64,000 nucleotides of DNA from Spirochaetia bacterium (GCA_963666985.2 CAXXIA010000002.1:2816001-2880000); one strand, 5' to 3'; numbered from the stretch's first letter, positions 2,818-48,600 are shown. The notes: generated from the sequence alone by a model not told the origin. Made by a program: numbers and translations.

Positions 2818-3017
2818 ATCTGAATGAAATAAAAATGGACCGAAGCTGTTTGAAAGTCGGCAGTCATGCCGATTTGGAAAGAGATGACTGCGAGTATTGG
2901 GCAAATGCTTCGGATCGTGAGCGATTCGAAACCATTACCTATCTCAGGGAGTGTTTCTATGGCGAAGAGGCCACTACCGGACGACTTCAGAGAGTTCATC
3001 GAGTGTTTAAACGATAG
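2814..3017 (+). CDS. small hypothetical protein, probable partner of the downstream nucleotidyltransferase
   Basis: ATGA overlap with the MNT stop; 67 aa, YW...ERF...LR pattern. Confidence 0.55.
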   Translation: MNLNEIKMDRSCLKVGSHADLERDDCEYWANASDRERFETITYLRECFYGEEATTGRLQRVHRVFKR

Positions 3018-3411
3018 CGATGTTCAATACCTTCTTGTCGGCGGTTGGGCTGTAGGCCTCTATGGAAATCCAAGGCTTACGAAAGATATCGATTTTCTGA
3101 TAGGTGTCGATGAGATCAATATTCAAAAACTCCAGGAAGCATTGCATGCTTTCGGTGGTCCAACTGTGGAAAATTCTGTGTTTACTGATCCTGGGAATGT
3201 CTTTAGGATGGGAAGTTCTCCGATACAGATTGATATTATCAATCGAGCGGACGGTGTTGATTTTTCCGAGTGCTACTTGAATCGTAATCTTCTGAAGTTT
3301 GATGACCTGGAAATTTCCGTTATCTCTCGAAATGATTTAATTCGTAACAAGAAAGCTTCCGGCCGACATCGCGACCTCGGAGATGTCGAGTTTCTCGAGA
3401 AGGCTGAATAA
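2959..3411 (+). CDS. nucleotidyltransferase-fold protein (DUF6036-like)
   Basis: YLLVGGWAVGLYGNPRLTKDIDF and C-terminal KKASGRHRDLGDV; start placed at ATG 2959. Confidence 0.8.
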   Translation: MAKRPLPDDFREFIECLNDSDVQYLLVGGWAVGLYGNPRLTKDIDFLIGVDEINIQKLQEALHAFGGPTVENSVFTDPGNVFRMGSSPIQIDIINRADGVDFSECYLNRNLLKFDDLEISVISRNDLIRNKKASGRHRDLGDVEFLEKAE

Positions 3412-4398: not shown

Positions 4399-7300
4399 TT
4401 ACTGAACGCTGTGGCTTCCGAGGTAGTCCCAACAATCTTTATCGTAGACAATCCACTCGGAGTCATCCGTATCGGTTCCCGCGGAGGTGCTCCAATCACC
4501 GGCGTTACCGGTAAGTACGGACGGCTTTCGAACCAGGGTGTGGTCCTTGGTGGCCGACGCGGTTCCCGCGACTTCGGCTTCGGCTTTTTCACCGAAAATG
4601 CCGATTTGATCGATGATGCTGCCGGAGGCATCCAGAAGTCTCATGCAGTCGTCTCCGTTGAAATTGACGGCCGAGCTTTCAATATCGGTTAATCCCAAGA
4701 TTGTTGAACCGGATTGAGGATTGGCGATAACCAAAACATCATTCGCGGCCAGTTCTTCGGTAAAGCTGTACGAAGCGGTTTCGGTGGTGGACCCGTTTGA
4801 GTAGAGCACCAGGGTGTATCCGTTCAGATCCACGGTTTCGGAACCCGGATTGTAGATTTCCACGTACTTGTTGTAGCTCGAACCCTCGCCGTATTCGGAG
4901 AAGAACAGGGTGCCGTCCGTTGAGGATGAGCCGGAATCGAAAGAGAAGGCGGCGACAACCGGGTCGTGGTCGGACTCGCGAACCTGGGAATCGTATTCGG
5001 CATAGCGGTGAACGATATCGACCTGAGCATTTTTCATCAGGCCCGATGTGGCCAGGATGTGATCCAGCTGCTGGCAGTTGCCGTAGTAGAAATAACTGTA
5101 CCGTTCGTTTTCGTCGAGAAGCTCTTCTGTGACGCTTTCAATCGAAGCTTCTTTCAGGATGTCCAGAGTTTCGGAATAAGAATAATCGTTCAGGTCGCCC
5201 AGGACGATAACGTTCGCGTCCGCGTCGATATCAAGGATGTCGTTCACGAAGTCGCGGACGGCTTCGGCCTGAATATGACGTTCGGTTTCACTGGAGAACA
5301 CGGGCGGCTGGTTCTCACCGAAGATGTAGTCGTCGCCGCTCTTGGAGCAAAGATGATTGTTCACCAGGAAGACCTTCTCGCCGTTGAACTCAAACTGGGC
5401 GGCCAGAGGACGGCGGCTGTCTTTAAAAGAGTCAACGGAGAAACGTCCGGGGTTAAGGGTGAGTGAAGGACCATCGCCGTCATCGACCACTTCGGTTTCG
5501 GTGGAGGCCATGGGTGTGCCGGCGGCCGTGAATCCGACTCGGGAAGGATTGTAAAGGTAACCCACCCGGATGTTGGCGCCTTCCCAGCCGCCCTCATCGT
5601 TATTGTTGGGTGCGATTTCCAGGTATTCATACGAGGGGCCGCCGAGGCTTACGACGGCATCGATTATGGACTGAGCGTTATCGGCGGCGCCGACCGTACC
5701 GTCGTCGTCGCTGTAGCTGTCGTCGGTCATTTCCTGAAGGCCGATGATATCCGGAGCGTTCAGAGCGGTTGCGATGGTGTATGCGATGTCTTCGATTTTG
5801 GCCTGAATCTCGGAAGAGTTCATGGACTCATCATCCCGGGGAAAGTTCAGGATGTTGAAGGTGGCCACGACAAGATCGTTTTCATCGGTTTCCAGACCGG
5901 AGGTTTCTTGTTCCACGGGATTGGAAACAAAGCTGGGCACTTCGGTCGGAAGCAGCATGAAGAGGCCGTAATCGTAGCTCATCACGCCCGTAACCGGCGA
6001 GGTGAAATAATCGCCCAGTCCGGCCGAAAGAGTCTCCAGGCCCAGGATGTCCGCATCGTAATCGATGTACAGAAGCTGGGGATTTACGTTGTCTTCGGTT
6101 CGAATGAGTCCGCCGCGGGCGGTGGCCGAATCATAAGTTACGCCGGCGGGGATTACGGGGATTTCGCCATAGGTGGTTGCTCCGATAACCACCGGATTGT
6201 CGAATTCCACGCGCATGCTTTCCAGGCTTTCAAAGAAGTCGATGGCATCTTCATCGGGATCGAAAACACTGTCGTAAACTGTTTCGACGGCATCGTCGCA
6301 GACTGTTCCGGTCGGCGGAAGGATTCCGTCTTTTCCGATGACGACGGCATCGGGCAGGGGGTAATCGGTGCTGATAACTTCAACGGTCGGGTAGGTGAGC
6401 TCGGTCAGCTTCAACTGTCCGCTGTAGCCGTATTCTTTGACGGTACCGTCCACGAGAACCAGATCGCCCACTTCCTGAGAATGGGAGGAGTAGGTATAGA
6501 CGTAGATTCCTTCACTGGTGGATGAATCGCCGTCTCCGGCCGGACTCTGCATCCAGAAGCCGGAATCTTCAACGGCGGTAACAACGCCGAGGACATCTTC
6601 GATGGTTTCTCCAACCATGGGACTGGTGTGTGAGGCGCCCTGGACTTCGGAGATTTTGATGTAGCTGGATACTTCGTCCGAAACGTAGACGCTGAAGCCT
6701 GTGGAACCGGCGCGGCTGCCGTCGGAAGAAAACGCGGCCAGATCAATGCGGTAGGTTCCCTCTTCATCTTCCATGAAGATGTACGCATCTCCCTGCCGGA
6801 CGGCTTCTCCCATGAGATACCAGACATAGCTGACATCGGAGAGATCTTCTTCAACGGAAGCCGAAAGAGCCATGGGCTCGGAAACCCCGATGATGTCGGA
6901 AGCGTTCCCGATAACGGGAGTCAGAGGATTTTCAAGGTTGACGTCGATGGCGACTTCAATGGAACCGCCGTTGATGTTCGCGTCGGTGAAATCAAGCTCA
7001 CCGGTTGTGGTTTGATCGGTGATGATTCGGACGATTTCCATCCAGCCGAAGCATAAGTAATCGTCATCATAGAGAGAGACGCTCAGGCTGTAGTAGCCGG
7101 CGTCCAGGGTTGTTTCACAGGAGGCGACTGCACCGTCGATGGTCATGTCAAGGGTTGTTGTTCCATCGGAATTGAGAAGCGAGGCGTTGAGAAGTGGAGT
7201 TTGAATCTCGGTTTCATCCCAGAAGACGCTGAGGGACAAGGTTCCTTCGCCTTCCAATGGCCGGATGTTTAAAACAACCGAAACTCTTTCGCCTGAATTG

Positions 7301-7644
7301 AGTTCCACGGTTGCCGAAGCACCGCCGATGAGAATACCGTCGGCATTGTAGGCCGCGGCACAGATGGTGTAGGTGCCGAAAACCAGGTCGTCCAGTACAA
7401 TGTATCCGTCCGGTTCGACATCATACTCACTGCTGCCGCCGTTGGGCGAAGTGACGGTTACCGTAATGAGTTCGGCGTCCATGGACACTTCCGGTGCCAT
7501 GGTCAGGCCAAGCGAGTTTTGGAAGCTGATGGTGAGGGCCGCATCTCCCGAAGCGGCTTTGCTCAGAGCTCCGCAGGACGAGAGGACCAGAAGCACGGCG
7601 CCTGCCGTCAGCAGTCCACCAAAACGATTTTTCAATTTCTTCAT
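4399..7644 (-). CDS. secreted lipoprotein nuclease (OB-fold + endonuclease/exonuclease/phosphatase domain + lamin-tail domain; ExeM/NucH-like)
   Basis: Lipobox LSSC; ISEVQG..SP, ATFNILNF, IIGLQE, GDLND, LDHIL and SDHDPV motifs; C-terminal LFFSEYGEGSSYNKYVEIYN; GGAGG before ATG 7644. Confidence 0.88.
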   Translation of the reverse strand: MKKLKNRFGGLLTAGAVLLVLSSCGALSKAASGDAALTISFQNSLGLTMAPEVSMDAELITVTVTSPNGGSSEYDVEPDGYIVLDDLVFGTYTICAAAYNADGILIGGASATVELNSGERVSVVLNIRPLEGEGTLSLSVFWDETEIQTPLLNASLLNSDGTTTLDMTIDGAVASCETTLDAGYYSLSVSLYDDDYLCFGWMEIVRIITDQTTTGELDFTDANINGGSIEVAIDVNLENPLTPVIGNASDIIGVSEPMALSASVEEDLSDVSYVWYLMGEAVRQGDAYIFMEDEEGTYRIDLAAFSSDGSRAGSTGFSVYVSDEVSSYIKISEVQGASHTSPMVGETIEDVLGVVTAVEDSGFWMQSPAGDGDSSTSEGIYVYTYSSHSQEVGDLVLVDGTVKEYGYSGQLKLTELTYPTVEVISTDYPLPDAVVIGKDGILPPTGTVCDDAVETVYDSVFDPDEDAIDFFESLESMRVEFDNPVVIGATTYGEIPVIPAGVTYDSATARGGLIRTEDNVNPQLLYIDYDADILGLETLSAGLGDYFTSPVTGVMSYDYGLFMLLPTEVPSFVSNPVEQETSGLETDENDLVVATFNILNFPRDDESMNSSEIQAKIEDIAYTIATALNAPDIIGLQEMTDDSYSDDDGTVGAADNAQSIIDAVVSLGGPSYEYLEIAPNNNDEGGWEGANIRVGYLYNPSRVGFTAAGTPMASTETEVVDDGDGPSLTLNPGRFSVDSFKDSRRPLAAQFEFNGEKVFLVNNHLCSKSGDDYIFGENQPPVFSSETERHIQAEAVRDFVNDILDIDADANVIVLGDLNDYSYSETLDILKEASIESVTEELLDENERYSYFYYGNCQQLDHILATSGLMKNAQVDIVHRYAEYDSQVRESDHDPVVAAFSFDSGSSSTDGTLFFSEYGEGSSYNKYVEIYNPGSETVDLNGYTLVLYSNGSTTETASYSFTEELAANDVLVIANPQSGSTILGLTDIESSAVNFNGDDCMRLLDASGSIIDQIGIFGEKAEAEVAGTASATKDHTLVRKPSVLTGNAGDWSTSAGTDTDDSEWIVYDKDCWDYLGSHSVQ

Positions 7645-8060
7645 TATTCCCTCCATGGGTGATATCGGTTATCTCATTATTAATCCGATTACTGAGTTTT
7701 TTTAGGTTATAATTGAATGAGAATTCAGTTTTTTTTGTTTGAGGATGATGAAGCATGGATGACCGGGCGGATTGATGGCATTGCTTGGGTATCGGCGGGC
7801 GGCATCGGCTTCCGGTGGGTTATGGCGGATTACGGCGGTTCGGGGAGGACCGTTCGTTCGCGGCGAAGAGACGCAGTACCCGAAAAGGCTTAAGGCGGCT
7901 CGCGGCGGGCGCCCAGGGGTCGGGAGGCGCGGAGCGCCTGCCCCACAACAAATCATTGGAATCTCACGGATTAAATGCGCAGATTTCTATAGGTGACTCG
8001 ATGCCGTCTTATCTCCGTACATCCTTGCCATGAACGGAAAGGATCGCTATCGTGGCTTTC

Positions 8061-11471: not shown

Positions 11472-11500
11472 AGTCTAGGTTGGCCTTATAAGGGTGTCAA
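11472..11500 (-). promoter_or_regulatory. sigma70-type promoter for cheR-cheB
   Basis: TTGACA-N17-TAGACT on the minus strand. Confidence 0.55.
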
Positions 11501-11587
11501 CAACATCTGATGTTTCCGGGAAATTATGCCCGATACGCCGAGAAAAGAGTCCTGTTTTACGGTATCGATGCGATATAATTTCAGTTG

Positions 11588-12076
11588 ATGTCCTCATTAC
11601 GAAATATCTATAACCTCCATGTCGTCGGAGTGGCTTTGACGGGACGCGATGGATTCCCGGTTGTTGTCTTTCAAGATACCGAGAGGGAGAATTTCCTTTC
11701 CCTGCCGACCGATCCTTTCGAAGCCGAGTTTATAATCCGCGAATTTATCGGTGAAGGGGAAGACTCCGCCGTGAGCTGGCTGGCCGAAATCATCGGCGGA
11801 AAATCTCTCCGGCAAGCCGTTCTGGAAATCGGCGCCGACAATCGCCCCGCAGTCCGCTTTTTCTTCGGCGGACTGAAAACACCCTCCGAAAGGGTTCTGC
11901 CTTTGGGTGAGGGGCTGGGTTTGTGCCGGAGGCTTCGTCTGCGGCTCTCCGCCGAATCGGATATATTTGAATTATTCCGCGACGAATTGGCTTTTCTCTG
12001 CAAGGGAAATGCGTTTCGAGAGAATTTTCTCTACTTGACCCCGCCGCTCTATGCGCCCACGATAGCCGTGGAATAA
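11588..12076 (+). CDS. divergent bifunctional-nuclease (DUF151)-like protein
   Basis: FPVVVFQD...LSLPTDPFEAEFI resembles the DUF151 N-terminus. Confidence 0.5.
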   Translation: MSSLRNIYNLHVVGVALTGRDGFPVVVFQDTERENFLSLPTDPFEAEFIIREFIGEGEDSAVSWLAEIIGGKSLRQAVLEIGADNRPAVRFFFGGLKTPSERVLPLGEGLGLCRRLRLRLSAESDIFELFRDELAFLCKGNAFRENFLYLTPPLYAPTIAVE

Positions 12077-12139
12077 TCGCTCGGGACTATGTTTTTCAGC
12101 TTAAGCCCGCGCGGATATCACTGAAGGAATATTGCTCAC

Positions 12140-12961
12140 ATGAAAATACAAGCTCTCTCCGGAAGGAATGTTTGGATTACCGGTGCCTCCTCCGGTATCG
12201 GACTTGAAATGTCTCTGCTGGCCGCGGAAGCCGGTGCTCATTTGACGTTGTTCTCATCAAGACGGGAAGCCCTGGCCGAAGCGGCCCGTCTTTGCCAGGT
12301 GAAAGGTGCCGCCTCGGTTTTTTTTGAAGCGGTTGATCTCTCCGAAGCCGAATCGGCCGCCGCCGTCTCCAGGAAGGTTTTGGAATCCTCCGGAACGCCG
12401 GACTATCTTATTCTGAATGCCGGAATTTCACAGCGCTCTCCGGCCGCTCTGACGGACATGGCGGTGGTTCGGAAGATTATGAATCTGAATTTTTTCGCTG
12501 CCGTCGCCATGACCCGGGAAGTTCTTCCGTCCATGGCGGAAAAAGGTTTCGGGCGAATCGGCGTTACCAGCAGTCTAACGGGTGTTTTCGGATATCCTCT
12601 GCGCTCGGCGTATGCGGCCAGCAAGCACGCCCTGCACGGGTATTTCGAATCCGTTGCCCTGGAATACGCTTCGTCGGGGATCAAAACAACCTTGGCGGTT
12701 TTAGGTCCGATCAACACACCGATCAGTCTGAATTCTCTTACCGGAGACGGCGGCCGGCACGGAAAAATGGACGCGAATCAGGAGAAGGGCATGGATGCCC
12801 GGATCTGCGCCGAAAAATATTGGAACGCCGTTATCCGGGGCCGCTGGGAAACGGTTATCGGCGGATTTAAAACGATCATGCTGTTCTTTTACCGAAATCT
12901 GCCCTTTCTTTATCGATTTATCGGAAAGAGAATTAGCCCCACCGGAAACCGACGCCCTTGA
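12140..12961 (+). CDS. short-chain dehydrogenase/reductase; candidate 3-ketocapnine reductase
   Basis: WITGASSGIG, NAGISQRS, YAASK; the specific role is inferred from context only. Confidence 0.85.
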   Translation: MKIQALSGRNVWITGASSGIGLEMSLLAAEAGAHLTLFSSRREALAEAARLCQVKGAASVFFEAVDLSEAESAAAVSRKVLESSGTPDYLILNAGISQRSPAALTDMAVVRKIMNLNFFAAVAMTREVLPSMAEKGFGRIGVTSSLTGVFGYPLRSAYAASKHALHGYFESVALEYASSGIKTTLAVLGPINTPISLNSLTGDGGRHGKMDANQEKGMDARICAEKYWNAVIRGRWETVIGGFKTIMLFFYRNLPFLYRFIGKRISPTGNRRP

Positions 12962-13131
12962 GTAAGCGGTATTCTTAAGGGGGGCGAATTTCAGATTCGC
13001 TCTTCCCTTACACGACAAACACAGGTAAACTGTCAACGAAAAATTTCACGCTTCTTCGGTGGACTCGTCTTGCACGGGCGAACTGGGGTTGACGGGCACA
13101 AAGGACGCTCTTTAAGAAGCAATTCCTACAT

Positions 13132-14013
13132 ATGGATCAACTCTCGCAACTTGAAAGCCTTGGCGTTCACATCCTGCGTGAGGCTTACGCCAATTTCCGG
13201 AATTTGTGCATGCTGTGGTCCATCGGCAAGGATTCGACTGTCCTCCTCTGGCTGGCTCGTAAAGCTTTCTACGGACATGTTCCCTTTCCGCTGGTGCACA
13301 TCGACACGCATTACAAAATTCCTGAAATGATTGAATACCGGGACAGACTGACACGGGAGTGGAAGCTTCCGATGGTCTACGGGGAGAATAAGGCGGCTTT
13401 GGAAGCCAAGCAGACATATCCCGACGGCAACGTCGACAGGATTAACTGCTGCCGGCTCTTGAAAGCCGAGGCGCTGAAGAACACTCTCAACGGATCCTGG
13501 CCGCGGTATCGGTTCAACCATGAGGCCGATGAGTATCAGGTGGACAAAGATACGGAGGCGTACACCGGCGTTATCGTCGGAGTTCGATCCGACGAGGAGG
13601 GTTCCCGTTCCAAGGAACGCTACTTCTCGCCCCGTGATACCGAAAATGCCTGGGATGTGGGTGATCAGCCTCCGGAATTCTGGAATCAGTTTAAAACCGA
13701 CTTCGCGCCGGGAACGCATGTCCGCATTCATCCTTTATTGGACTGGACCGAAACGAACATCTGGGAGTACATCGAACGGGAAGGGATTCCGACGGTGTCA
13801 CTGTACTACGACCAGGGCGAAGGCATTCGTTATCGTTCCCTGGGGTGCGGTCCCTGCACGCATCCGGTTGAGTCCGACGCGAAAAACGTCCGGGACATCA
13901 TCGTTGAACTTCAATCCGGCAAGTTCGCGAATATCGCGGAGCGATCCGGCCGGGCACAGGACAAAGAAGACGGCGGCGGATTGGAAACGCTGCGGCGCGA
14001 GGGGTACATGTAA
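13132..14013 (+). CDS. cysD: sulfate adenylyltransferase subunit 2
   Basis: [43 protein letters not shown], ending REGYM. Confidence 0.96.
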
Positions 14014-15839
14014 TGAGTGGCCCCAACGGAAAAAAAATGTCTTCACTTGAGCACATGAACGTCGTGATTACCGGTCATGTGGATCATGGGAAGAGTACGG
14101 TTATCGGCCGGCTTATGGCCGATACGGGAAGCCTGCCGGAAGGTAAACTGGATCAGGTGAAAGCTTCCTGCGCCAGAAACTCGAAACCCTTCGAATACGC
14201 ATTCCTTTTGGACGCTCTCAAGGACGAACAGAGCCAGGGAATTACGATCGACTCGGCGAGAGTCTTTTTCAAAACAAAGAAGCGTCATTACATCATCATC
14301 GACGCCCCGGGGCATATCGAGTTTCTCAAGAACATGGTGACCGGCGCGGCGCGGGCCGAAGCCGCATTTCTCACGATTGATGCCGCCGAAGGCGTTCAGG
14401 AAAACTCCCGCCGTCACGGTTATCTGCTTTCCATGCTGGGCATCAAGCAGATGTGCGTGCTGGTGAATAAGATGGATTTGGTGGACTACGATCAGAAGGT
14501 CTACAAGTCCGTGGTGCGCAAATACACCCGCTTTCTGAAGAACATCAACATGGAAAACGTGAAGTTCATTCCCGTATCGGGCATGGAAGGCGACAACATC
14601 GCCTCGATGAGTAAAAACATGCCGTGGTGGAAGGGCGATACGGTGCTCACCCTGATTGATAAGTTCAAGAAGGAAAAGGCGCCGGTTGATCTGCCGTTCC
14701 GCATGCCGGTACAGGACGTGTACAAATTTACGGCCATGGGAGACAGCCGCCGGATTATCGCCGGAACCATATCAACCGGAACCTTGAAGCTTGGGGACGA
14801 GCTGGTTTTTTATCCTTCGGGAAAGAAAAGCAAGGTTGCCGGAATAGAACAATTTAACGGTGATCCTCCGGAAACCGTGCCCTCGGGGGCGGCCACCGGA
14901 TTCACCATGAGTGAGCAGATTTACACCAAGCGGGGCGACCTTGTCGTCCGCGCGGGAGAAAAGCCGCCGCAGACGGGCAATGTGATGCGCGTGAATCTGT
15001 TCTGGCTGGGAAGGGAGCCTTTCGTTAGGGATAAAGAATATATCCTGAAAACCGGAACCGAACGCGTTCGGATGAAGCTGTTCGACACGATAAAGGTTAT
15101 AGACGCATCGAATCTGAATTCGGACGGAATGAAGAAAATGGTCGAGCGTCATGATGTCGCCGATTGCGTTCTTTCCACCAAAAGACCCATTGCCTTCGAT
15201 TTGGTTGAAGATTTTCCTCAAACCAGCCGTTTCGTCATCGTGGACGGATACGAGATTGCCGGCGGCGGCATTATCCGCGAGGTGATTCGCGATAATAAGG
15301 CCAATTACCGGGACCGGGTAATGGACCGGAATCTGAAATGGGACACCAGCGATATCCCGCGTGAAAGCCGATCGGAAACATACGGCCATGCCCCGTCACT
15401 CATATTGGTCGGAGGGCCGGAAGATAAACGGAAGGCCGCCTTTGCCAAAACCATCGAGAAAAAAATGTTCGCCGAAGGGAATAAAGTTTACTACTTGGGC
15501 GTGCAGAATGTTTTGGCCGGTTTGGATTCCGATATGGAAATCAAAAGGCACCAAACCTATCCCGAGGACAGAGAAGAAATGGTTCGGCATCTTGCCGAGC
15601 TGGCGAACATTCTTCTGGATGCGGGAATCATTCTTGTCGCGACGGTTTCCGGACTTACATACGACGAACAGGAAATGTTCCGTACTTCCGTTTCGCCCGA
15701 AACGGTTCGAACCGTTTGGGTTGGCAATACGGACGGATTGGAAGTGGAGGCCGACTACGTTATTACGGATGTCGGAGAGGCTTCGGAGCATCTGGAATCC
15801 GTCATGAAGATGCTGAAGACAAAGGGGATAGGGAAATGA
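14013..15839 (+). CDS. cysN: sulfate adenylyltransferase subunit 1 fused to a degenerate APS-kinase-like domain
   Basis: GHVDHGKST, QGITID, DAPGH, NKMD; the C-terminal CysC-like region lacks the P-loop. Confidence 0.93.
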   Translation: MSGPNGKKMSSLEHMNVVITGHVDHGKSTVIGRLMADTGSLPEGKLDQVKASCARNSKPFEYAFLLDALKDEQSQGITIDSARVFFKTKKRHYIIIDAPGHIEFLKNMVTGAARAEAAFLTIDAAEGVQENSRRHGYLLSMLGIKQMCVLVNKMDLVDYDQKVYKSVVRKYTRFLKNINMENVKFIPVSGMEGDNIASMSKNMPWWKGDTVLTLIDKFKKEKAPVDLPFRMPVQDVYKFTAMGDSRRIIAGTISTGTLKLGDELVFYPSGKKSKVAGIEQFNGDPPETVPSGAATGFTMSEQIYTKRGDLVVRAGEKPPQTGNVMRVNLFWLGREPFVRDKEYILKTGTERVRMKLFDTIKVIDASNLNSDGMKKMVERHDVADCVLSTKRPIAFDLVEDFPQTSRFVIVDGYEIAGGGIIREVIRDNKANYRDRVMDRNLKWDTSDIPRESRSETYGHAPSLILVGGPEDKRKAAFAKTIEKKMFAEGNKVYYLGVQNVLAGLDSDMEIKRHQTYPEDREEMVRHLAELANILLDAGIILVATVSGLTYDEQEMFRTSVSPETVRTVWVGNTDGLEVEADYVITDVGEASEHLESVMKMLKTKGIGK

Positions 15840-17128
15840 GTTTCATGCCTACCGAATACAGCCTTGTTTCCGTTGCCTCAGGTTCGCGAAGAGCCGATGA
15901 AGGCGGATGGACCCTGGATTTCCCCAACGAGGCTCCTTCACTGATACGGGCCGAGTATGCTCAAAAGAAGCTGAAGCTTCGGGACGATCTGGGAGGTCTT
16001 TATCGATTCGCCGATTGGCTGCCCATTCGGAGAATCCTTGAGGGATCGGCCGCGCCGGTGACCTACCGTTCCGAGGGATTGGGCGAAGAACTCGGGCTTA
16101 AAAATCTTTGGATAACCTTTAACGGCTGGTGGCCGGAAAAGGGTGCCGGCATGCAAACGGGAACGTTTAAGGAATGCGAGGCCTACAGCGTCTGTGCCCG
16201 AATGAGCGAAGACTTCGGGAAAATCCTTGTCGTGGCGTCGGCCGGGAATACGGCCCGGGCATTCGCCCGCGTCTGCTCGGACAATCACATACCTCTGCTT
16301 CTCTTTGTTCCCGAGGATAATTTAAACGCCATGTGGTTCCATACGCCTCTTCATGACTGCGTGAAATTGATTTCTCCCGAGTCCGGAGGCGATTACTTCG
16401 ATGCCATACATATGTCGAACATGGCGGTTGCCGGAAGCGGCCGCTTCATCGCCGAAGGAGGCGTGAAGAATGTGGCCCGCCGGGACGGTATGGGAACTAC
16501 GGTTCTTTCGGCGGCAACAACGATAGGCCGAATCCCCGACTTTTATTTTCAGGCGGTCGGCAGCGGTACGGGCGCCATCGCGGCCTGGGAGGCGGCAATC
16601 CGTTTGGAGGCCGACGGAAGTTACGGCCCGAATCGAATGAAGCTCATGGTAAGTCAGAACGCTCCCTTTGTTCCCATGCGGGACAGTTGGAAGGCCGACT
16701 CACGGGAATTCTTGATTGCCGATGATGATGCGGCGCGATCTCAAGTGGCCGAGGTGAATGCCAAGGTTCTTACCAACCGCCGTCCTCCCTGGAGCATTCC
16801 GGGCGGACTCTATGATGCCTTAAAGGCCGCCGGCGGAGAGGTTTTTGGGGCTTCCAACGAGGAAGCTTCCCGGGCCGCCGAACGGTTTTTACAGCTGGAA
16901 GGGAACGATATCAGTCCGGCCGCGGCCGTCGCGGTTGCGTCTTTATTTCAAGCGGTTAAGGAGAAATCCGTTTCCTCCGAGGACTGTGTGATGCTCAATA
17001 TCACAGGCGGCGGCATGGAGCGGTTCAAGTCCGAAAATGAAATTCATATCGCCGAGCCCTCGGCCGTTTTGAAGCTTGATGCTTCGGATGATGAAATCGT
17101 AAAAGTTTCGGAGAGCCTTTTTCCGTAA
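15836..17128 (+). CDS. cysteate synthase (PLP, threonine-synthase family)
   Basis: TGTFKECEA (PLP Lys), ASAGNTARAF, EGGVKNVARRDGMGT, YFQAVGSGTG, LNITGGG; ATGA-coupled to cysN. Confidence 0.88.
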   Translation: MSFMPTEYSLVSVASGSRRADEGGWTLDFPNEAPSLIRAEYAQKKLKLRDDLGGLYRFADWLPIRRILEGSAAPVTYRSEGLGEELGLKNLWITFNGWWPEKGAGMQTGTFKECEAYSVCARMSEDFGKILVVASAGNTARAFARVCSDNHIPLLLFVPEDNLNAMWFHTPLHDCVKLISPESGGDYFDAIHMSNMAVAGSGRFIAEGGVKNVARRDGMGTTVLSAATTIGRIPDFYFQAVGSGTGAIAAWEAAIRLEADGSYGPNRMKLMVSQNAPFVPMRDSWKADSREFLIADDDAARSQVAEVNAKVLTNRRPPWSIPGGLYDALKAAGGEVFGASNEEASRAAERFLQLEGNDISPAAAVAVASLFQAVKEKSVSSEDCVMLNITGGGMERFKSENEIHIAEPSAVLKLDASDDEIVKVSESLFP

Positions 17129-17239
17129 GAGGCTGCCGGCCTAACACTGCCGGTAATAACGATTTTCCGGCGGACTCAAGGAGTCCGGTATATATACGGC
17201 GGTTTTGGAAAGCCGCTTCAGTTTAAGGAGAATAACAAT

Positions 17240-18520
17240 ATGGCGGATATTTTTGACAAATGCGCAACCGATGAAGGGTATTTCGGCCGTTTCCGCGCCG
17301 CCGGAGACCGTTTTTTCACCCTTCCGGTTATAGACGATCTTCCCGGTCCCCGGATGAAGTACCAGGGCCAGGAAAACATCATGTGGTCGGTGAACAACTA
17401 CATTGGTCTGGCAAACGATCCGGATATCAAAGCGGCGGCTCTGGAGGCCACCGAATACTGGTCGGTGAGTTCCCCCATGGGATCGCGCATGATGAGCGGA
17501 ACCACCAGTGAGCATCTGGCCTTGGAAAAATCTCTGGCCGAACTTGCCCAGAAGGAAGATGCCTTCCTTTTTAACTACGGCTACATGGGCGTTATCGGCA
17601 CCGTGGTGTCCTTAACCGGTCCGGACGACACCCTCATCGTCGATAAATTGGCTCATGCCTGTATCGTCGACGCGGCCTTCAGCGCCAAAGGATCGAACGC
17701 CGGCAAGCCCAATGTCCGTTTCTTCCGGCATAACGACATGCACGATTTGGAATCGGTGCTGAAGATGGTTAATAAGGACCGCAAGGGCGGCGTGATGATT
17801 CTTTCCGAAGGCGTATACGGCATGACCGGCGACCTTGCGGATTTGAAGGGCATCACCGCTTTGGCGCGGCAGTACGACGCCCGAGTGTTCATTGACGACG
17901 CCCACGGCATCGGCGTACTGGGAGAAAATGGACGGGGAACCGCCGATCATCTGGGCGTTCAGGATGAAATCGATATCTATTTCGGTACTTTCGCCAAAAC
18001 CTTCGCTTCCATCGGCGGCTTTTCGGCCACCACCAAACAGGTACGCGACTGGATTGCCTACAACGCCCGCACCCAGGTTTTCGCCAAGGCGCTGCCTATG
18101 CCTTACGTGAAGTCCCTTCAGGTGGCCCTGACGAAAGTGATGAATGACGATTTTCGCCGGAAGCTGATGTGGGAGCGTTCCAACCAACTGAAAAACGGAC
18201 TTCGCGAGTTGGGGTATCACATCGGTACAGGTGATTCACCTATCTGTGCGGTCTTTACACCCGTCGGCGACAACCTCGAGGATGTTGGCATGGGTATGCT
18301 TAAATACCTGCGTGACCATAACATCTTCTGCACAGGTGTTGTGTGGCCGGTTATTCCTCCGGGACTGGTTATGTTCAGGATGATCCCCACCACCGCCCAT
18401 TCCGAGGAAGACGTGGCCCGTACCGTCGAAGTGTTTAAAAGCATGCGGGACGATCTGAAGATTCAGTTCCCCTTAAACGACGACCTTGTAAAACGTATCG
18501 GCAAAATATTCAGAGACTAG
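17240..18520 (+). CDS. alpha-oxoamine synthase, probable cysteate acyltransferase (SulA/CapB-type)
   Basis: WSVNNYIGL, GSRMMSG, DDAHG, GTFAK (PLP Lys253) and QVFAKALP (Lys283); directly follows cysteate synthase. Confidence 0.85.
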   Translation: MADIFDKCATDEGYFGRFRAAGDRFFTLPVIDDLPGPRMKYQGQENIMWSVNNYIGLANDPDIKAAALEATEYWSVSSPMGSRMMSGTTSEHLALEKSLAELAQKEDAFLFNYGYMGVIGTVVSLTGPDDTLIVDKLAHACIVDAAFSAKGSNAGKPNVRFFRHNDMHDLESVLKMVNKDRKGGVMILSEGVYGMTGDLADLKGITALARQYDARVFIDDAHGIGVLGENGRGTADHLGVQDEIDIYFGTFAKTFASIGGFSATTKQVRDWIAYNARTQVFAKALPMPYVKSLQVALTKVMNDDFRRKLMWERSNQLKNGLRELGYHIGTGDSPICAVFTPVGDNLEDVGMGMLKYLRDHNIFCTGVVWPVIPPGLVMFRMIPTTAHSEEDVARTVEVFKSMRDDLKIQFPLNDDLVKRIGKIFRD

Positions 18521-18522
18521 AA

Positions 18523-18692
18523 GGTCTAATTCGTAAAGAAAACAAGAGAGTACCCGCTGTTCGGCGCTGCCGAACAGCTGTTTATCGATGTCTCGTGAGA
18601 GTGTAACGGAAGCGGATTCGGATCTAGGGTCGTACCGCAGCTGAGCGAGGAACGATTTCGGCACAATTCTTTTTGTTTTCACGAATTAGACC
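18523..18692. mobile_element. 170 bp MITE-like element
   Basis: Terminal inverted repeats GGTCTAATTCGT..GAAAACAA / TTGTTTTCACGAATTAGACC, flanked on both sides by GAA (candidate 3 bp target duplication); no transposase. Confidence 0.75.
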
Positions 18693-39605: not shown

Positions 39606-40982
39606 ATGGATACGCCTTCTTTCCGGGCAAAATGCGCCGCTGTTCTTCATCGAATATTCCTGTTTTTCTTCTATTTACTTCTTCGCTCCACAGTTGGACT
39701 TTATTGCCGCATCAGGTACAGAGTTCGCTATCATCGCCCTCGTGAAGTACGGCGATTGCGTACGCCGTATGTCGTCCTGGCGGACCATGTTCATATCATG
39801 GATATGTTTTTTATAGGGCTGGGACTTCGGCCGGTGATTCATTGGGTGGCCGCGGACGCGAACTTTCGGACGCCTTTCATGAAATTCGTCATGACCTTTC
39901 TCGCGGGTGCCGTTGCGAAGTCCAAGAACCGTTCGGATATGATTACCTTGAGCCGGATGAAGCTGTTAACGGATATAGGCAGCGTTATCGGTATTTATCA
40001 GGAAGGAGAGCGGAGCTGGGACGGCGTGAGTCTGCCGCCGGTTCCGGGAACCGACAAACTGATCCGTTTTCTTAAAGTTCCGGTGGTGTATGCGCATTTG
40101 GAGGGAGCGTTCTTGAACCACCCCCGGTGGTCCTGGAAGAGCAACCGGAATCGCGTCAATGTCCGATATGAACTTGTTATTGACAGAAATGAAGTGAAGA
40201 ACATGCCTCTTTCGGAAATTACCGACCGTATCGGACGGGCGGGAACATATAACGAATGGGAGTATCAGAAAAAGGCGGCCCTGCCGTTGGGAACCGATAC
40301 AAGGGCGGAACATCTGGAACTGGTCTGCTTTCTCTGTCCGAAGTGCCGGTCGGTGAATACTTTGGTTTCTCAAGGGAATACGTTCTCCTGTTCCGCCTGC
40401 GGCATGAATGGAGTTGTTGATTCCTTCGGGAGTCTTGTTTGGCATGATGAGCCGGAAGCGTGGCCGCAGGGAAAGCCTTTCGAGAATATCCGGATGTGGA
40501 ATCTTTGGCAGATTGACTATTATCGCCGGGTTGTCGCCGAGCTTTATCCCGAACCCATCGAAGCGGGTACCGATGCTTCCGTTTCTTCAGATTACGCCTC
40601 GGCGCGAGGTGATACAGCCCATACTCCGCCTGCTGCTCGATCTGCCGGCGATGTGCTGCTCGGCGATCATCTTTTCTGGGAAGATGCGAACACGGTCTAT
40701 CTGAGCCGAGGCCGGCGGAATCGGAGAATGAAAAATCTTGGGCTGGGGACGGCCCGATTCTTCGGCGACCGGATTGAATACGAATCGTCCGAGATCAATC
40801 TTGTGATGCCGCTGGATACGATTTCTTCCTTCAGCGTGTTCAAACAATATTACGTTGAGTTCTACCATAATCGGGTGCTCTACCGGTTTGCCTTCGCGAA
40901 CCGGTCCGTTTCCGGCTACAAGTGGCTGATGCTTTTCCGAATTATCCTGGAAAGGATTTCAAGGATAAAGAATGGTGGATGA
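39606..40982 (+). CDS. PlsC-type acyltransferase with a zinc-ribbon C-terminal extension
   Basis: HVHIMD (HxxxxD), YQEGERSWDG, CPKC...CSAC. Confidence 0.82.
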   Translation: MDTPSFRAKCAAVLHRIFLFFFYLLLRSTVGLYCRIRYRVRYHRPREVRRLRTPYVVLADHVHIMDMFFIGLGLRPVIHWVAADANFRTPFMKFVMTFLAGAVAKSKNRSDMITLSRMKLLTDIGSVIGIYQEGERSWDGVSLPPVPGTDKLIRFLKVPVVYAHLEGAFLNHPRWSWKSNRNRVNVRYELVIDRNEVKNMPLSEITDRIGRAGTYNEWEYQKKAALPLGTDTRAEHLELVCFLCPKCRSVNTLVSQGNTFSCSACGMNGVVDSFGSLVWHDEPEAWPQGKPFENIRMWNLWQIDYYRRVVAELYPEPIEAGTDASVSSDYASARGDTAHTPPAARSAGDVLLGDHLFWEDANTVYLSRGRRNRRMKNLGLGTARFFGDRIEYESSEINLVMPLDTISSFSVFKQYYVEFYHNRVLYRFAFANRSVSGYKWLMLFRIILERISRIKNGG

Positions 40983-41138: not shown

Positions 41139-42218
41139 CTATCCTTTGACGCTCTCGCAGCCTCCTTTGACGCGGCCGAGGCCGAGGGCGTTGAGAACGA
41201 GTTTGGGCAGCGGTTTGCCGGCCGGTCGTTTGGAGAGGTCCATGTACCAGCCGATTTTTTTCATGACAGGGAGTTTTTTTGTTTCGACGAACTCGATGAG
41301 GGTGCCGTCGGCATCTTCAATGTAGGTGAAGCGGCCGGCGGCTTCGCCCATGTCGAAGGGTGTGCCCGAATCGACGGTGAAGGGGAATCCGAGGGTTCCG
41401 AGGTGCTGCTGCAGGGCGTCCATGTCCTGGATGTCGAAGCAGAGGTGGATGAATCCGCCGTCGCCCCAGTAGCGGCCGGCAAGGATTTTATCGGGTTTGC
41501 GGTTGAGGGCCTGGACGAGTTCGATGCGGCTGGAGCCGAAGATGGGCGCGAAGGGGCCGGTGGGTTTTTGGCTTCGGGTGAGGAGGACGCGCCGGAAGTT
41601 CCCGCCGCCGCCGTTTAAGGGAGACCAGTCGGTGAAGCTGCCTTCCTGGTCGTAGAGGACGGTGTCGTAGCCTAATCCGTCGCGGTAGAGTTTCAGGGAT
41701 TTTTCAATGTCGGAGACGCCGATGAGGGCGCCGGCGGGTCCGCCGGTGGGGTGGCCTTTGGTTTTGTACCATTCGTCGGAATGGACGATTTGAAAGATGT
41801 TGCCCCAGGGATCGCGGACGAAGAAGGTGGGCTCGCCGTCGGGGCCCACGGCGGGGTTGCCGAGGACGGTGGCGCCCGAATCCACGAGGTATCTGTGAGC
41901 GGTTACCGGGTCGTCGGTTTTGATGCGGGCGGCGAAGATGCCGGTGTCGCCGAGTTTGGGCGGTTTCTCCGGGAAGACGGTTTTCCGGCTGGTGTACTGC
42001 CAGATTTCAAAGCCGCCTCCTCCGCGGAGGTTGACGGCCAGGATGGCGTAGCGGGATTGGACTTTGCCGCCGGTGTATTTGGTCATGAAGGGAGCTTCGG
42101 CGGCTTCTTTGAACACGGGGATGTCCATGCCGAAGCGGCACCGGTACCATTTCCATGCTTCGTCGGCGTCCGGGATGCCGATGCCGATTTGCTGTATTCC
42201 GCTGATAAGATGGGCCAT
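41139..42218 (-). CDS. VOC (glyoxalase/bleomycin-resistance) family protein with tandem domains
   Basis: IQQIGIG, FEIWQY, RDPWGNIFQI, IHLCFD, EDADGTLIEFVE. Confidence 0.85.
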   Translation of the reverse strand: MAHLISGIQQIGIGIPDADEAWKWYRCRFGMDIPVFKEAAEAPFMTKYTGGKVQSRYAILAVNLRGGGGFEIWQYTSRKTVFPEKPPKLGDTGIFAARIKTDDPVTAHRYLVDSGATVLGNPAVGPDGEPTFFVRDPWGNIFQIVHSDEWYKTKGHPTGGPAGALIGVSDIEKSLKLYRDGLGYDTVLYDQEGSFTDWSPLNGGGGNFRRVLLTRSQKPTGPFAPIFGSSRIELVQALNRKPDKILAGRYWGDGGFIHLCFDIQDMDALQQHLGTLGFPFTVDSGTPFDMGEAAGRFTYIEDADGTLIEFVETKKLPVMKKIGWYMDLSKRPAGKPLPKLVLNALGLGRVKGGCESVKG

Positions 42219-45645: not shown

Positions 45646-48600
45646 CTATTTTAATCCGATGGGGAAATCCTGGCCGAAAACAAATCCGGTCGGGAACTGA
45701 GCTTCGCCCGCGTACTCTTCTGTTAATTCGGGCAGATTCGTTTCCACGTAGCTTTTCAGGCTCCCCACGGTTATTTGACCGTTGGATTGCGCGGCCTCTC
45801 CGGCCAGCCCGTTCAAAATCGCTTTGGTTAAGGCTCCCTGTCCGAGGGTTGCGAATTCCTGTGCGAATTGATCTTCGCGGCTGGCGGCGATAAGCGTGGA
45901 TCCGGTTGCTCGGCTCAGACGCGACAGGGCGATTTCCTCTCCCGCGCCGCGGACGGCAAAGGCGGAATTGATGGCTCCCGAATTGCAGGCATCCAGTACC
46001 ATAAACTGCTTTCGTGCGGGTACGGCGCTGATAAGTTCTTCGAATTCAGGCCCCGATAGGCCCAATCGCTCCACCTGACTTAAATCGGTCATCTGCGTAA
46101 CATCGGTGGGAATGAAAAAGAATTCCGAGCGCTCGGTTTCCTCATACTCCAGAGCGATTCCGTGACCGGCAAAAAAGAACATGAACACATCTTCCGGTTT
46201 CGATTCGGATTGGATGCCGCGGATGGCGGAGCTAATGCCTGCGCGGGTTGCCTCGGTATCCGTGAGAAGCGTTGATTCAATGTTTTTAAAGAGCCCTCCG
46301 GCGGCTTTTTCAACCGCGGCGATGAAGCTTATCGCATCGGTTTTGGCATAATTCAAATCGTAGCGGCCGTTTCTGTATTCGTTTATTCCAACGGAAATAA
46401 TCCAGAGAGTCGGTTCCGCCCTGCGGGGAGCCCGATAACTGATCAAAGCCTGGGCGGGATTGCTTTCCACCCGGGAATCGGAAAAGCCGACGGCTCGGAG
46501 AAGATTTTCACCGCCGCTCAGTTGGATTGTAAACGTATGGATGTTTTGGGAGTGCGCCGTTGAGCCGAGCCCTCGGGTTGTTCCCGATACCCGGGTGCCG
46601 TTGTGGAAGAGCCGGATTTCGTCGACGCCTCCGCCCTGATCGGACGCTTCAACCCGAATCCTTAAGTTCCCGTCGCTGATTTTGTAATCCGAATCTCCTT
46701 CGTTTATAAGAGAGAAGACTCCGTTTGTTCTTTCGGCTTTAATTGTAATGTTCGGTGGTGCTTTAAAACCGTCCGTCAGGTTTCGGGACGCGGGGAGGTT
46801 TGAGATATCTCTTCCGGCAGCGGTGGCTTCGACGATATCCGGCCGGTAAAAAACATCAAAGAATTGGTCTATGGAATAGGCCGTCAGGCCGTTGACGATA
46901 TACACGGCTTTGCGCGCGAATTCTTTATCACCGGAAAAGTACCCATCCGGGGTCCAAACAACCGAATTCCCTTCGGGGTTAAGGACGATCGAATAAATCA
47001 GCCGTCCGTCGGGGATGCTCCAGAGGTTGATGATTCCATTCTCCGAGCAGGAGAGCAGCCGGCTGCCGTCTATGGTGAAAGCCAGAGAATTAACCGATCC
47101 TGTAAATCCCCGCAAGGTGAGAATCTCTTTTCCGGTTGCCTTCTCCCAGAGCCGCAGAGTTCTGTCGTTTGAACCGGAAGCGAGCAGACGGCCGTCCGAA
47201 GAGAAGGCGATTGTATTCACAACATTCTCATGTCCGATGAAGGATCTGATGAATCTTCCGCTTTCCATATCATACAGATGGATTTGATTATCCAAACCAC
47301 CGCCGGCAACCAGAGTTCCATCGGAAGTAAAGGCAACGCTTTGCGAGAAGTTTATGCTGCTCCGGTCGTGATATTTCCGGATATGCCGGCCCGTCGCGCC
47401 GTCGATGAGAGCCATTCCCCCATTGCTGTGGGATAAGATAAATCGGCCGTCCGGAGAGTAGGCGAAATCACGCGGCGTATCCCCGCCGGTTCCACTGTCG
47501 ATTTCACGAAGGAGTTCTCCTGTTTGAACATCAACGGCATAAATGGTCTTGTCTCCTCCTATTGAGTAGAGCAGGGTCCTGCCGTCCGGAGAAATCTCAA
47601 CATCGGTAATTTTTCCGTATATGTTTTTTCCGTTAAACGTGTTGAGCAGGCGTTTGTTCGGAATATCCCAGATAGAGACGGTTCCGTTGTCTCTGCCTGA
47701 AACCGCCAGCGCACCGGAGGGTGTAATGGATATGTCAAGAATCTCTCTGTTTTTGAGTACGATTCTCTGATTGTTCGGATGAACAAAGGTTTGGACGGTT
47801 CGGCCGGTGGCAAGGTCGAATCGTCCCATGAGCCCGTTCATTCCGCAGCAGTAAAATGTTTTTCCGTCGGGGCCTATCCGGAGGGTATTCAGGGCTGTGG
47901 CCGCCGGTTCCAGACTGTAGCGTTTTTTGCCGTCGCCGGCATCCAGCATAACCAGAGTCCGGTCATAGTCGCCCGTAATCGCTATCTTCGAATTATCCGG
48001 TGTAAGAGAGATGCGATGGTTGTATATATCGGAACTTTCCCAGTCCATGTTTCCCGTGGCAATATTCCAACGGTAAATTTTCCCATAAGCATTGGATATC
48101 AGAAAACGGCCGTCTTTTGATATTTGAACATCCTTGATTTCCCTCTCGTGGGAGAAGGTTCTGATAATCCGTCCGGTGGCGGCATCCGCGAGAGTTATTG
48201 TTTTATTATCGTTGGATGTGAACGCCAGATAGCGGCCGTCGGGGGACCATGTCGAGGGCCGGATGCCTTCCCATTCCTGTTCTATTTCGCCGCTTTCCAT
48301 ATTAAGAAGCTTGATTCCGCTGTCGGCCGCTCCAAGGTTGGCAAGCAGAACGGTTTCGTCCCGCGGTGAAAAATGTACGGAAGAATAATTGAAATGGAAT
48401 CCCGAAAAATCCTGAAGTTTCCGGCCTGTTTTTAAATCCCAGAGCATAACGTGGTTGTCATTGGAGCAGGTAACGAGTCTCTCTCCATCGCCGGACAGAT
48501 CCGTTCCGGAGGGATGTCCTTGGTGACCGCTTAAGCGGAGGCTCCGTATCTGCCGACCGCTGCCGATTTCGAAAACAGAGTAATTGATGGCGTTACCATC

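Follow-up and report, generated by a model that had tools for sequence, protein, structure and literature searches.

Gene organization of the locus

The window analyzed here is a 64,000-nucleotide stretch of a Spirochaetia bacterium genome (GCA_963666985.2, CAXXIA010000002.1:2816001-2880000), and the subject of this work is a putative sulfonolipid (capnine) biosynthesis cluster within it. In agreement with an initial annotation of this DNA, the cluster comprises five co-oriented genes spanning positions 12140 to 18520, which encode a short-chain dehydrogenase/reductase (SDR), the sulfate-activation proteins CysD and CysN, a cysteate synthase and an alpha-oxoamine synthase (AOS) resembling the cysteate acyltransferases CFAT, CapB and SulA (Table 1). 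Gene identities were assigned from profile hidden Markov model (HMM) and PDB matches. Both stop/start overlaps reported earlier are real: cysD and cysN share one base at 14013, the last A of TAA being the A of the cysN ATG, and the cysN TGA overlaps the synthase ATG in an ATGA at 15836-15839. The synthase reading frame has an alternative in-frame TTG at 15716, upstream of its ATG. Intergenic distances are 170 nt between the SDR gene and cysD and 111 nt between the synthase and AOS genes. A sigma-70-type promoter was detected neither 5' of the SDR gene nor 5' of cysD. Since the 18 terminator-like sites detected compare with 11.3 ± 3.4 in shuffled sequences, the hairpin following the AOS gene is weak evidence by itself.

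Loci and genomes used for comparison carry L and G numbers, G000 being the window's own genome (contigs C1 and C2). A 33-kb contig from a second study covers positions 11500-18525 with intact frames and approximately 160 substitutions, and then diverges from the window. It carries an intergenic replacement at 17122-17223, and within genes the only length change is one compensating pair of a 1-nt deletion and a 1-nt insertion. As this one contig spans the whole region, the cluster is not an assembly artefact. The dN/dS ratio relative to locus L001 was ∼0.02 to 0.2 for all five genes and for the more distant VOC gene (with dS near saturation), and the GC content of the cluster genes (0.52 to 0.56) is close to the 0.51 of the genome.

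Table 1. Features of the window that are discussed in the text
Feature	Position	Strand	Remarks
SDR, DHRS7B-like, candidate 3-ketocapnine reductase	12140..12961	+	273 aa; PF00106 145.7 bits
CysD, ATP sulfurylase catalytic subunit, divergent, CC...CxxC	13132..14013	+	293 aa; PF01507; NF003587 339.6 > 195
CysN GTPase subunit, degenerate C-terminal APS-kinase-like domain	14013..15839	+	608 aa; PF00009 162 bits, PF01583 33 bits
Cysteate synthase, archaeal (threonine-synthase-derived) type	15836..17128	+	430 aa from ATG; PF00291; TIGR03844
CFAT/CapB/SulA-like cysteate C-acyltransferase, PLP-dependent	17240..18520	+	426 aa; PF00155; PDB matches
Terminator-like hairpin 3' of CFAT	18556..18578	+	10 pairs, 7 G-C, T-rich tail; consensus match only
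Tandem VOC/glyoxalase-fold protein, predicted accessory pathway enzyme	41139..42218	-	359 aa; PF00903 61.7 bits

The AOS resembles cysteate acyltransferases

The initial annotation had proposed that the AOS is of the CapB/SulA type, an assignment for which the PDB ranking, a diagnostic lysine, the putative cysteate pocket and the phylogenetic placement all argue. The best PDB match was the CFAT structure 28EH (347 bits), followed by 7U7H (336 bits), which is SulA according to PMC13692747 (here and below, publications are cited for the extracts available of each), then by serine palmitoyltransferase (SPT; 209 bits), 2-amino-3-ketobutyrate CoA ligase (KBL; 185 bits) and BioF (145 bits). The match to long-chain CFATs extends over the full length of the protein, N-terminal thumb included (residues 1-421). 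Conversely, the protein stayed under every NCBIfam cut-off for SPT, KBL and BioF (NF047600, 270/640; NF047599, 268/500; NF005394, 268/460; TIGR01822, 222/493; TIGR00858, 273/426).

Lys281 was proposed as a marker separating SulA from SPT (Radka 2022, PMC9304779). The window residue K283 aligns with K281 of 7U7H and K280 of 28EH, and the equivalent position is K in 108/108 rows of the CFAT clade described below, A in SPT-like rows and N in KBL rows. Ten residues lie within 4 Å of PLP-cysteate (PLP, pyridoxal 5'-phosphate) in 28EH (N52, F113, G114, Y115, H139, C141, H219, T247, K250 and K280; Pang 2026, PMC13692747); nine are identical in the window protein, and F113 is replaced by Y, which by eye is also the residue of the A. 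machipongonensis CFAT (PMC11525784 supplement). The window protein carries N52, Y115, H139, C141, E190, F248, A252, K253 and K283 at the key positions, K253 within the motif FGTFAK being the catalytic lysine of fold-type I PLP enzymes (K250/K251 in the references). At 11 positions that distinguish CFAT from SPT, eight are as in 28EH. Bacterial SPT, which acts with 3-ketodihydrosphingosine reductase, shares fold and chemistry with the window enzyme but has A, F, S and D where the latter has K, Y, C and E.

A quick IQ-TREE phylogeny of 116 proteins, with the tested CFAT/SulA (CapB) enzymes themselves left out, placed the window AOS in a CFAT clade of 108 rows (support 100) that groups with none of the SPT-like, KBL or BioF rows. 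This clade splits into 48 mostly Bacteroidota rows (support 99) and 60 others (support 83); the latter contain a branch of 40 spirochaete rows that includes the window (99) and another of 14 (100), the remainder being WOR-3/Stahlbacteria (four rows) and Legionellaceae (two). Row order within the 40-row branch follows kinship, which fits vertical descent rather than recent transfer. Ten close spirochaete homologues carry public labels that are generic or read 'glycine C-acetyltransferase' or '2-amino-3-ketobutyrate CoA ligase', and neither a CFAT label nor a cultured isolate was found among the listed cluster members of these ten proteins.

The genome encodes a second AOS outside the window (G000:C2:2052163-2053446), with an SPT residue signature and 513 bits against NF047600 (under the cut-off of 640). 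This SPT-like gene is flanked by SDR genes (L165:7315-10268, corresponding to G000:C2:2051314-2054267); an SPT-like gene adjoining an SDR gene recurs in 4/8 relatives examined, and the Bacteroidales genome G447 also has both AOS types. These observations suggest sphingoid-base synthesis in spirochaetes alongside sulfonolipid genes, and if both AOS genes work, the cell would make sphingoid as well as sulfonated bases. Two Legionellaceae bins (L027:7983-10316 and L030:7983-10710) contain CFAT-clade genes with the diagnostic lysine, each followed by an AMP-binding (acyl-CoA synthetase-like) gene; the genome of L027 gave no TIGR03844 or VOC match.

The cysteate synthase is of the archaeal type by sequence

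The product of the gene at 15836 passed the cysteate synthase HMM TIGR03844 (461.7 against a cut-off of 324.9), as its earlier designation implied. Its PDB match 9K3C, titled 'Cysteate synthase', scored 556 bits over residues 2-429, the next match being a threonine synthase with 36 bits, and the PLP lysine motif TFKEC aligns with 9K3C. No sign of identity with CapA, which is cystathionine beta-synthase (CBS)-like, was seen: PDB matches comprised 9K3C and threonine synthases only, and the protein is by eye unlike the listed CBS-type CYS sequences. Judging from these comparisons, the synthase is of the archaeal type and not a CBS-like CapA. The same type is assigned to Alistipes and Odoribacter in a review (PMC10191378), and several spirochaete records already bear the cysteate synthase label. 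The cysteate synthase of coenzyme M synthesis in Methanosarcinales resembles the window protein in that TIGR03844 is passed, whereas in the window the neighbour is an acyltransferase rather than an aminotransferase or decarboxylase, and no ComD was found in the genome. A coenzyme M route was rejected on the latter ground.

A synthase tree put ten Bacteroidales rows inside the spirochaete rows, as sister group of the window's genus (support 97). The AU test rejected a monophyletic grouping of all 36 spirochaete rows (p-AU 2.75e-6) but not one of the 15 family rows (p-AU 0.13). Because sampling was biased (9/10 Bacteroidales rows had been picked as top matches of the query), the tree had no archaeal outgroup and the monophyly tests were mixed, we claim no donor for a transfer. 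The one Bacteroidales synthase locus checked (L254) had no cysD, cysN or CFAT gene within ∼8 kb.

The host is a spirochaete

The contig that carries the window measures 3.1 Mb and belongs to a genome of 4.86 Mb that is 93.1% complete and 1.4% contaminated. Of the 80 loci retrieved with the AOS protein, the best 32 comprise 26 whose titles read Spirochaetaceae, Spirochaeta, Alkalispirochaeta, Spirochaetales or Olavius spirochaete symbiont (57 to 88% identity to the window AOS) and six WOR-3, Stahlbacteria or Legionellaceae bins; nearly all of the other 48 are Bacteroidota, at 39 to 44% identity. L001 is syntenic with the window over the whole cluster and over cheB and cheR, the latter two at 75 to 80%. 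Three matches to FlaA, the periplasmic flagellar sheath protein, were found in the genome and none in 14 control genomes. The host is a spirochaete, as had been supposed from the flanking genes, and the kin loci, FlaA and the genome data show that the contig is not from Bacteroidota.

Sulfate activation and sulfite supply

That sulfate activation is clustered with the pathway held for CysD and CysN; however, the operon appears to stop at adenosine 5'-phosphosulfate (APS), and the APS reductase is encoded elsewhere. CysD, which passes NF003587, scored 234 against the TIGR02039 cut-off of 397. The CysN directly 3' of it reached 327 with TIGR02034, just under the cut-off of 336. The C-terminal kinase domain of CysN reads GGPEDKRKA at the P-loop, as opposed to GLSGSGKST in the genome's canonical CysNC, where PF01583 scores 207 bits, and the P-loop is degenerate in most of the six homologues shown. 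The window CysN thus does not appear to be a bifunctional CysNC APS kinase, and the operon should yield APS, so that sulfite formation needs an APS reductase, here located outside the window.

Such a reductase is present on the other large contig (G000:C1:1162297-1163472; TIGR02055 250, cut-off 235). This protein (L101:946-2121) has an extra N-terminal CxxC domain, thioredoxin/glutaredoxin-like by eye, and a low-complexity linker. In other loci, cysH directly follows the CFAT gene (L128, L129 and L134) or precedes the synthase gene (L131). Siroheme sulfite reductase (PF01077) had no match here or in any of the three same-family genomes tested; with neither PF01077 nor ComD present, cysteate is the evident sink for sulfite.

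CysD carries the cysteines C106, C107, C239 and C242, present in 11/11 homologues checked. This CC...CxxC motif resembles the 4Fe-4S site of APS reductases. A role of CysD as bifunctional APS reductase was rejected, since it has no ECGLH tail and genuine APS reductases are encoded next to it or at other loci. CysD is 77 to 93% identical across distant spirochaetes and is paired with the kinase-degenerate CysN. A second, canonical cysDNC set (L102:2316-3362, on G000:C1) adjoins an AT-rich gene that is sulfotransferase-like by eye.

Conservation and co-occurrence of the core genes

The order cysD-cysN-synthase-CFAT was found in 8/80 AOS loci and in 8/20 of a second set of stretches, with one genome in both, and it spans the genus, the family and other classes. 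Synthase and CFAT genes are adjacent in ten further spirochaete loci and four WOR-3/Stahlbacteria loci of the 80-locus set. Among 40 relatives, 20 have a CFAT-type gene (including 13/13 in the genus, two of them in pieces) and 19 a synthase; mismatches between the two occur in G002 (71% complete), G018 (74%) and G034 (95%).

Of 400 Spirochaetota genomes sampled evenly, 20 encode the synthase; the CFAT gene (E ≤ 1e-85) was detected in 19, every one of them also synthase-positive. Neither gene was found in the largest sampled families (80, 52 and 37 genomes). Family f33 has the synthase in 14/14 and the CFAT in 13/14 genomes with the genes unlinked, so linkage alone does not explain the co-occurrence. 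These counts describe a pattern and are not statistical proof; Fisher tests were computed but overstate it because kin genomes are not independent. Apparent decay or assembly error was seen twice: in G002 (L237:6484-8625), SDR and CFAT genes are adjacent and both frameshifted and cysDN-synthase is missing, and in G034 (L132:5600-8750) the CFAT is intact, the VOC gene split and no synthase matched.

The upstream SDR

The initial annotation took the first gene of the cluster for the ketocapnine reductase CapC. Its SDR nature and its context stand, whereas it is DHRS7B-like and by eye seems to belong to another subfamily than CapC. The classical motif set (TGxxxGxG, NAG, S, YxxxK) is present, with TGxxxGIG at 14-21 and YxxxK at 158-162. 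NF049977 (KdsR) gave 89.8, under its cut-off of 400, and the nearest named homologues outside spirochaetes are DHRS7B-like proteins of Bacteroidota and Rhodothermales (41 to 48%). The gene lies upstream of cysD in L001, L005, L029, L147 and L258. Homologues at 35 to 38% identity belong to SDR-VOC-CFAT arrangements in two loci (L036 and L061) and to SDR-VOC arrangements in two others (L212 and L213); in L036 (Lutibacter), the order is SDR, CapA-like, SDR, VOC, CFAT. Several unrelated SDRs are able to reduce 3-ketocapnine (Wu 2024, PMC11211663). We somewhat favour the view that the window SDR reduces 3-ketocapnine, a role read from gene context only, given its dissimilarity by eye to the Ornithobacterium rhinotracheale CapC.

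A VOC-fold protein associated with CFAT

Clustering of CFAT neighbours yielded the VOC family as one recurring family, present in 20/47 loci and mostly convergent with CFAT. The neighbourhood was seen in spirochaetes and WOR-3/Stahlbacteria, with VOC proteins of ∼355 aa, and in six Bacteroidota loci the VOC gene also precedes or follows CFAT. All six genes are contiguous in L258, with the VOC gene ∼170 nt from CFAT. In the window, this distance is ∼22.6 kb, the intervening DNA starting with a low-GC segment, and the VOC gene has been displaced from CFAT by an inserted block. The block (18700-39500), lying between CFAT and the acyltransferase/VOC genes, is not found at this place in L001 or L258. 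It begins with a low-GC (0.37 to 0.42) peptide ABC transporter, a LysR regulator and an enolase-superfamily gene and continues with an FAD oxidoreductase, a molybdopterin oxidoreductase, an Fe-S protein, a LacI-type regulator, a sugar ABC transporter and two sulfatases.

The VOC family occurs in 20/40 relatives and in 17 of the 400 Spirochaetota genomes, all 17 synthase-positive. In a Bacteroidales-centred sample of 121 genomes it was present in 23, namely 23/43 CFAT-positive and 0/78 CFAT-negative genomes, mostly unlinked. As only part of the CFAT-positive genomes have it, it is accessory and not essential. From this genomic context, the VOC protein probably has a role in the pathway.

Across 108 rows, Q9, E71, E233 and E309 are invariant and H258 occurs in at least 90%. 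The resulting Q/E/H/E set resembles the metal ligands of glyoxalase I. Weak profile matches (E about 1e-4) are to glyoxalases and methylmalonyl-CoA epimerase, VOC superfamily isomerases with which the family also shares PF00903; it differs from them in its length of ∼355 aa and in being confined, in our samples, to CFAT-positive genomes. The family is distinct, as 7986/8000 scored candidates fell at E ≤ 1e-30, and it has no close solved or named relative. A single-sequence structure model (pLDDT 35) was unusable for metal-site geometry. As a tentative guess, the protein could work together with the DHRS7B-type SDR as a metal-dependent isomerase or epimerase, forming an enolate from the alpha-amino ketone of 3-ketocapnine or of its N-acylated derivative.

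IOR-1 is a diol inhibitor from a Cyclobacteriaceae producer. A role of the VOC protein in making an IOR-type 2,3-diol was weakened in that it was found in none of the five genomes inspected (two Cyclobacteriaceae, two other Cytophagales and one Legionellaceae; mostly metagenome-assembled genomes). No link between VOC or glyoxalase proteins and sulfonolipids was found in titles or abstract beginnings of the papers listed. Four WOR-3 and Stahlbacteria loci (L014, L026, L028 and L031) combine synthase-CFAT with a divergent VOC gene (∼31 to 33%; H258 replaced by E).

Proposed pathway

The reading of the locus as a cysteate synthase and a CapB/SulA-type acyltransferase, with sulfate activation, in a spirochaete host held in all the sequence tests that were run. 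We consider it likely that the cluster is a spirochaete operon making capnine-type sulfonolipid bases. By analogy with characterised homologues, CysDN would convert sulfate to APS, which the CysH encoded elsewhere in the genome would reduce to sulfite. The cysteate synthase would then join sulfite and O-phosphoserine to cysteate, CFAT would condense cysteate with a long-chain acyl-acyl carrier protein to 3-ketocapnine and the upstream SDR may reduce this to capnine, with possible tailoring by the VOC protein.

This proposed system shares synthase, PLP-dependent acyltransferase and SDR with CapA-CapB-CapC of Capnocytophaga ochracea and O. rhinotracheale, the pocket residues of CFAT 28EH being kept. 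It differs in occurring in Spirochaetota, in having an archaeal-type synthase instead of the CBS-like CapA and a DHRS7B-like SDR instead of CapC, in having dedicated CysDN (often with CysH in relatives) in the operon, and in its sister-branch CFAT. With Alistipes finegoldii it has in common the SulA lysine (Lys281 in 7U7H) and the synthase type (PMC10191378); the reductase genes of that organism are scattered (PMC11211663), whereas the window synthase and CFAT genes lie side by side and are linked to the sulfate-activation genes.

As no N-acylation enzyme was identified, the pathway could end in free capnine or in N-acyl capnine. The PlsC-type gene at 39606-40982 adjoins the VOC gene and in L001 directly follows CFAT. 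It was rejected as N-acyltransferase: its family occurs in 34/41 genomes regardless of CFAT, close orthologues are found in three relatives, and acyltransferases near the VOC gene in the Bacteroidota loci L212, L214 and L215 gave no BLAST match to it. A GNAT gene upstream in three of the four WOR-3/Stahlbacteria loci named above is an N-acyltransferase candidate. In one lineage only, a 416-aa gene (L005:9686-10936) that is co-oriented with and directly follows CFAT has no Pfam match at 1e-5, and its product is Eis-type GNAT-like by eye.

Alternative readings

Several observations weigh against the proposed pathway. The non-Bacteroidota CFATs are a sister group (support 83) to the Bacteroidota branch, at ∼40 to 44% identity, and the tested enzymes are linked to the clade only by PDB ranking and shared residues. 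A82S, F113Y and M277V differ from 28EH, S82 being the SPT residue (although each variant also occurs among Bacteroidota homologues), and PMC13692747 concludes that specificity is not determined by a small number of residues. G034 has a CFAT with no TIGR03844 match, G558 a synthase homologue with no CFAT match. G218, G263 and G273 have the operon with no VOC match, and two of these more distant carriers, G218 and G273, do have sulfite reductases. The window SDR is unlike O. rhinotracheale CapC (QAR30703.1, PMC11525784 supplement) in a by-eye comparison, is unlinked in the same-genus genomes G003, G005 and G009 and was missed in 4/13 same-genus genomes (73 to 87% complete). The genome gave no match to OlsB/GlsB-type N-acyltransferases (PF13444). 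Finally, Oceanispirochaeta piezotolerans M1 is reported with cardiolipins and glycolipids and no capnines in the extract of PMC11129491.

That the AOS is an SPT, KBL or BioF acting on serine, glycine or alanine, with cysteate going to coenzyme M or another sulfonate, would match the public labels of its close homologues and S82; we regard it as very unlikely in view of scores of 270-273 bits against cut-offs of 426-640, K283, Y115, C141, E190 and the CFAT clade placement, the near-perfect co-occurrence with cysteate synthase, the lack of a ComD match in the genome and the presence of a separate SPT-like gene. A Bacteroidota origin of the cluster or contig, by mis-binning, chimerism or recent transfer, has in its favour that the nearest synthase homologues outside the genus are from marine Bacteroidales (61 to 64%), and yet its probability is practically negligible: the contig is 3.1 Mb long in a genome 93% complete and 1.4% contaminated, all 13 same-genus genomes have a CFAT-type gene (two in pieces), the CFAT branch holding the window contains spirochaetes only, FlaA is present and the second-study contig carries the same cluster. 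For the reduction step the balance is closer, as the 3-ketocapnine pathway may be real and the SDR at 12140 an unrelated neighbour, with another of the at least ten other SDRs in the genome acting as reductase. The 170-nt gap to cysD, the dissimilarity to CapC, the unlinked copies in three same-genus genomes, identities of only 33 to 37% outside the genus and the scattered, diverse working reductases of C. gleum and A. finegoldii (PMC11211663) speak for this. We nevertheless lean away from it, since members of this SDR subfamily accompany VOC and CFAT in the Bacteroidota loci L036, L061, L212 and L213, matches at E ≤ 1e-28 outside the genus occur in 7/7 CFAT-positive relatives against 3/20 CFAT-negative ones, and in G002 the SDR gene abuts CFAT. 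The enzymes might also act on cysteate with an end product other than a capnine-type membrane lipid, for example through a short acyl donor or a remodelling of the ketone by VOC protein and SDR (to a deaminated 2,3-diol, a soluble signal or an osmolyte). This would be compatible with the separate branch formed by spirochaete CFATs, the N-acyltransferase not found and the VOC gene being nearly always in spirochaete carriers (17/20). It seems unlikely to us given the full-length similarity to long-chain CFATs, thumb included, the SDR-VOC-CFAT arrangement with a CapA-like gene in Lutibacter L036, a genus reported with capnines (PMC11129491), and the absence of VOC matches from two genomes of Cyclobacteriaceae, the family of the IOR-1 producer.

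Other genes of the window

Away from the cluster, the window encodes an AbiEii-like nucleotidyltransferase (2866-3408; weak Pfam match), an ExeM/NucH-type extracellular nuclease-like protein of 1085 aa (4399-7656; under the NCBIfam cut-off) and a WD40-repeat protein of 1124 aa (45646-49020).

Implications

To our knowledge, capnine-type sulfonolipids have so far been described as Bacteroidota-specific membrane lipids. Titles and abstract beginnings of the papers listed reported no sulfonolipid, cysteate or capnine pathway in spirochaetes. The string 'spiroch' is absent from the main text and seven readable supplements of PMC11525784 and from the supplements of PMC13692747 and PMC11211663 (text only, figure images lying outside the search). 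In the extract of PMC11052126, T. denticola is not named among sulfonolipid makers, and an unidentified aminolipid is described for Salinispira pacifica (PMC4511686). Wu 2024 (PMC11211663) mentions loose homologues from 13 phyla, not all of them named in the text. While the core chemistry is known, new elements would be a distinct CFAT branch formed by spirochaetes and candidate phyla, the operon's provision for its own sulfite and one further candidate enzyme.

A bolder joint proposal, which we consider doubtful as a whole, is that sulfonolipid synthesis is old and multi-phylum (two spirochaete branches, WOR-3/Stahlbacteria and some Legionellaceae), that a VOC metallo-isomerase and a DHRS7B-type SDR alter the stereochemistry or the C2/C3 groups of 3-ketocapnine to give an undescribed backbone, that the host also makes sphingolipids and that the marine Bacteroidales synthase came from spirochaetes.

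As a compact operon, the predicted sulfate-to-ketocapnine route should be rebuildable in E. coli, and in about half of the CFAT-positive genomes of the Bacteroidales-centred sample, the VOC family supplies a concrete candidate for a step to which no enzyme is assigned. If the proposed pathway holds, capnines could not be read as Bacteroidota markers in sediments, soda lakes or animal symbioses. Sulfonolipids as a class signal to choanoflagellates and mammalian TLR4, and a symbiont of a gutless worm (the Olavius algarvensis spirochete endosymbiont, L029) would then make this lipid class. The link of these lipids to gliding would likewise need rethinking for cells that swim with periplasmic flagella.

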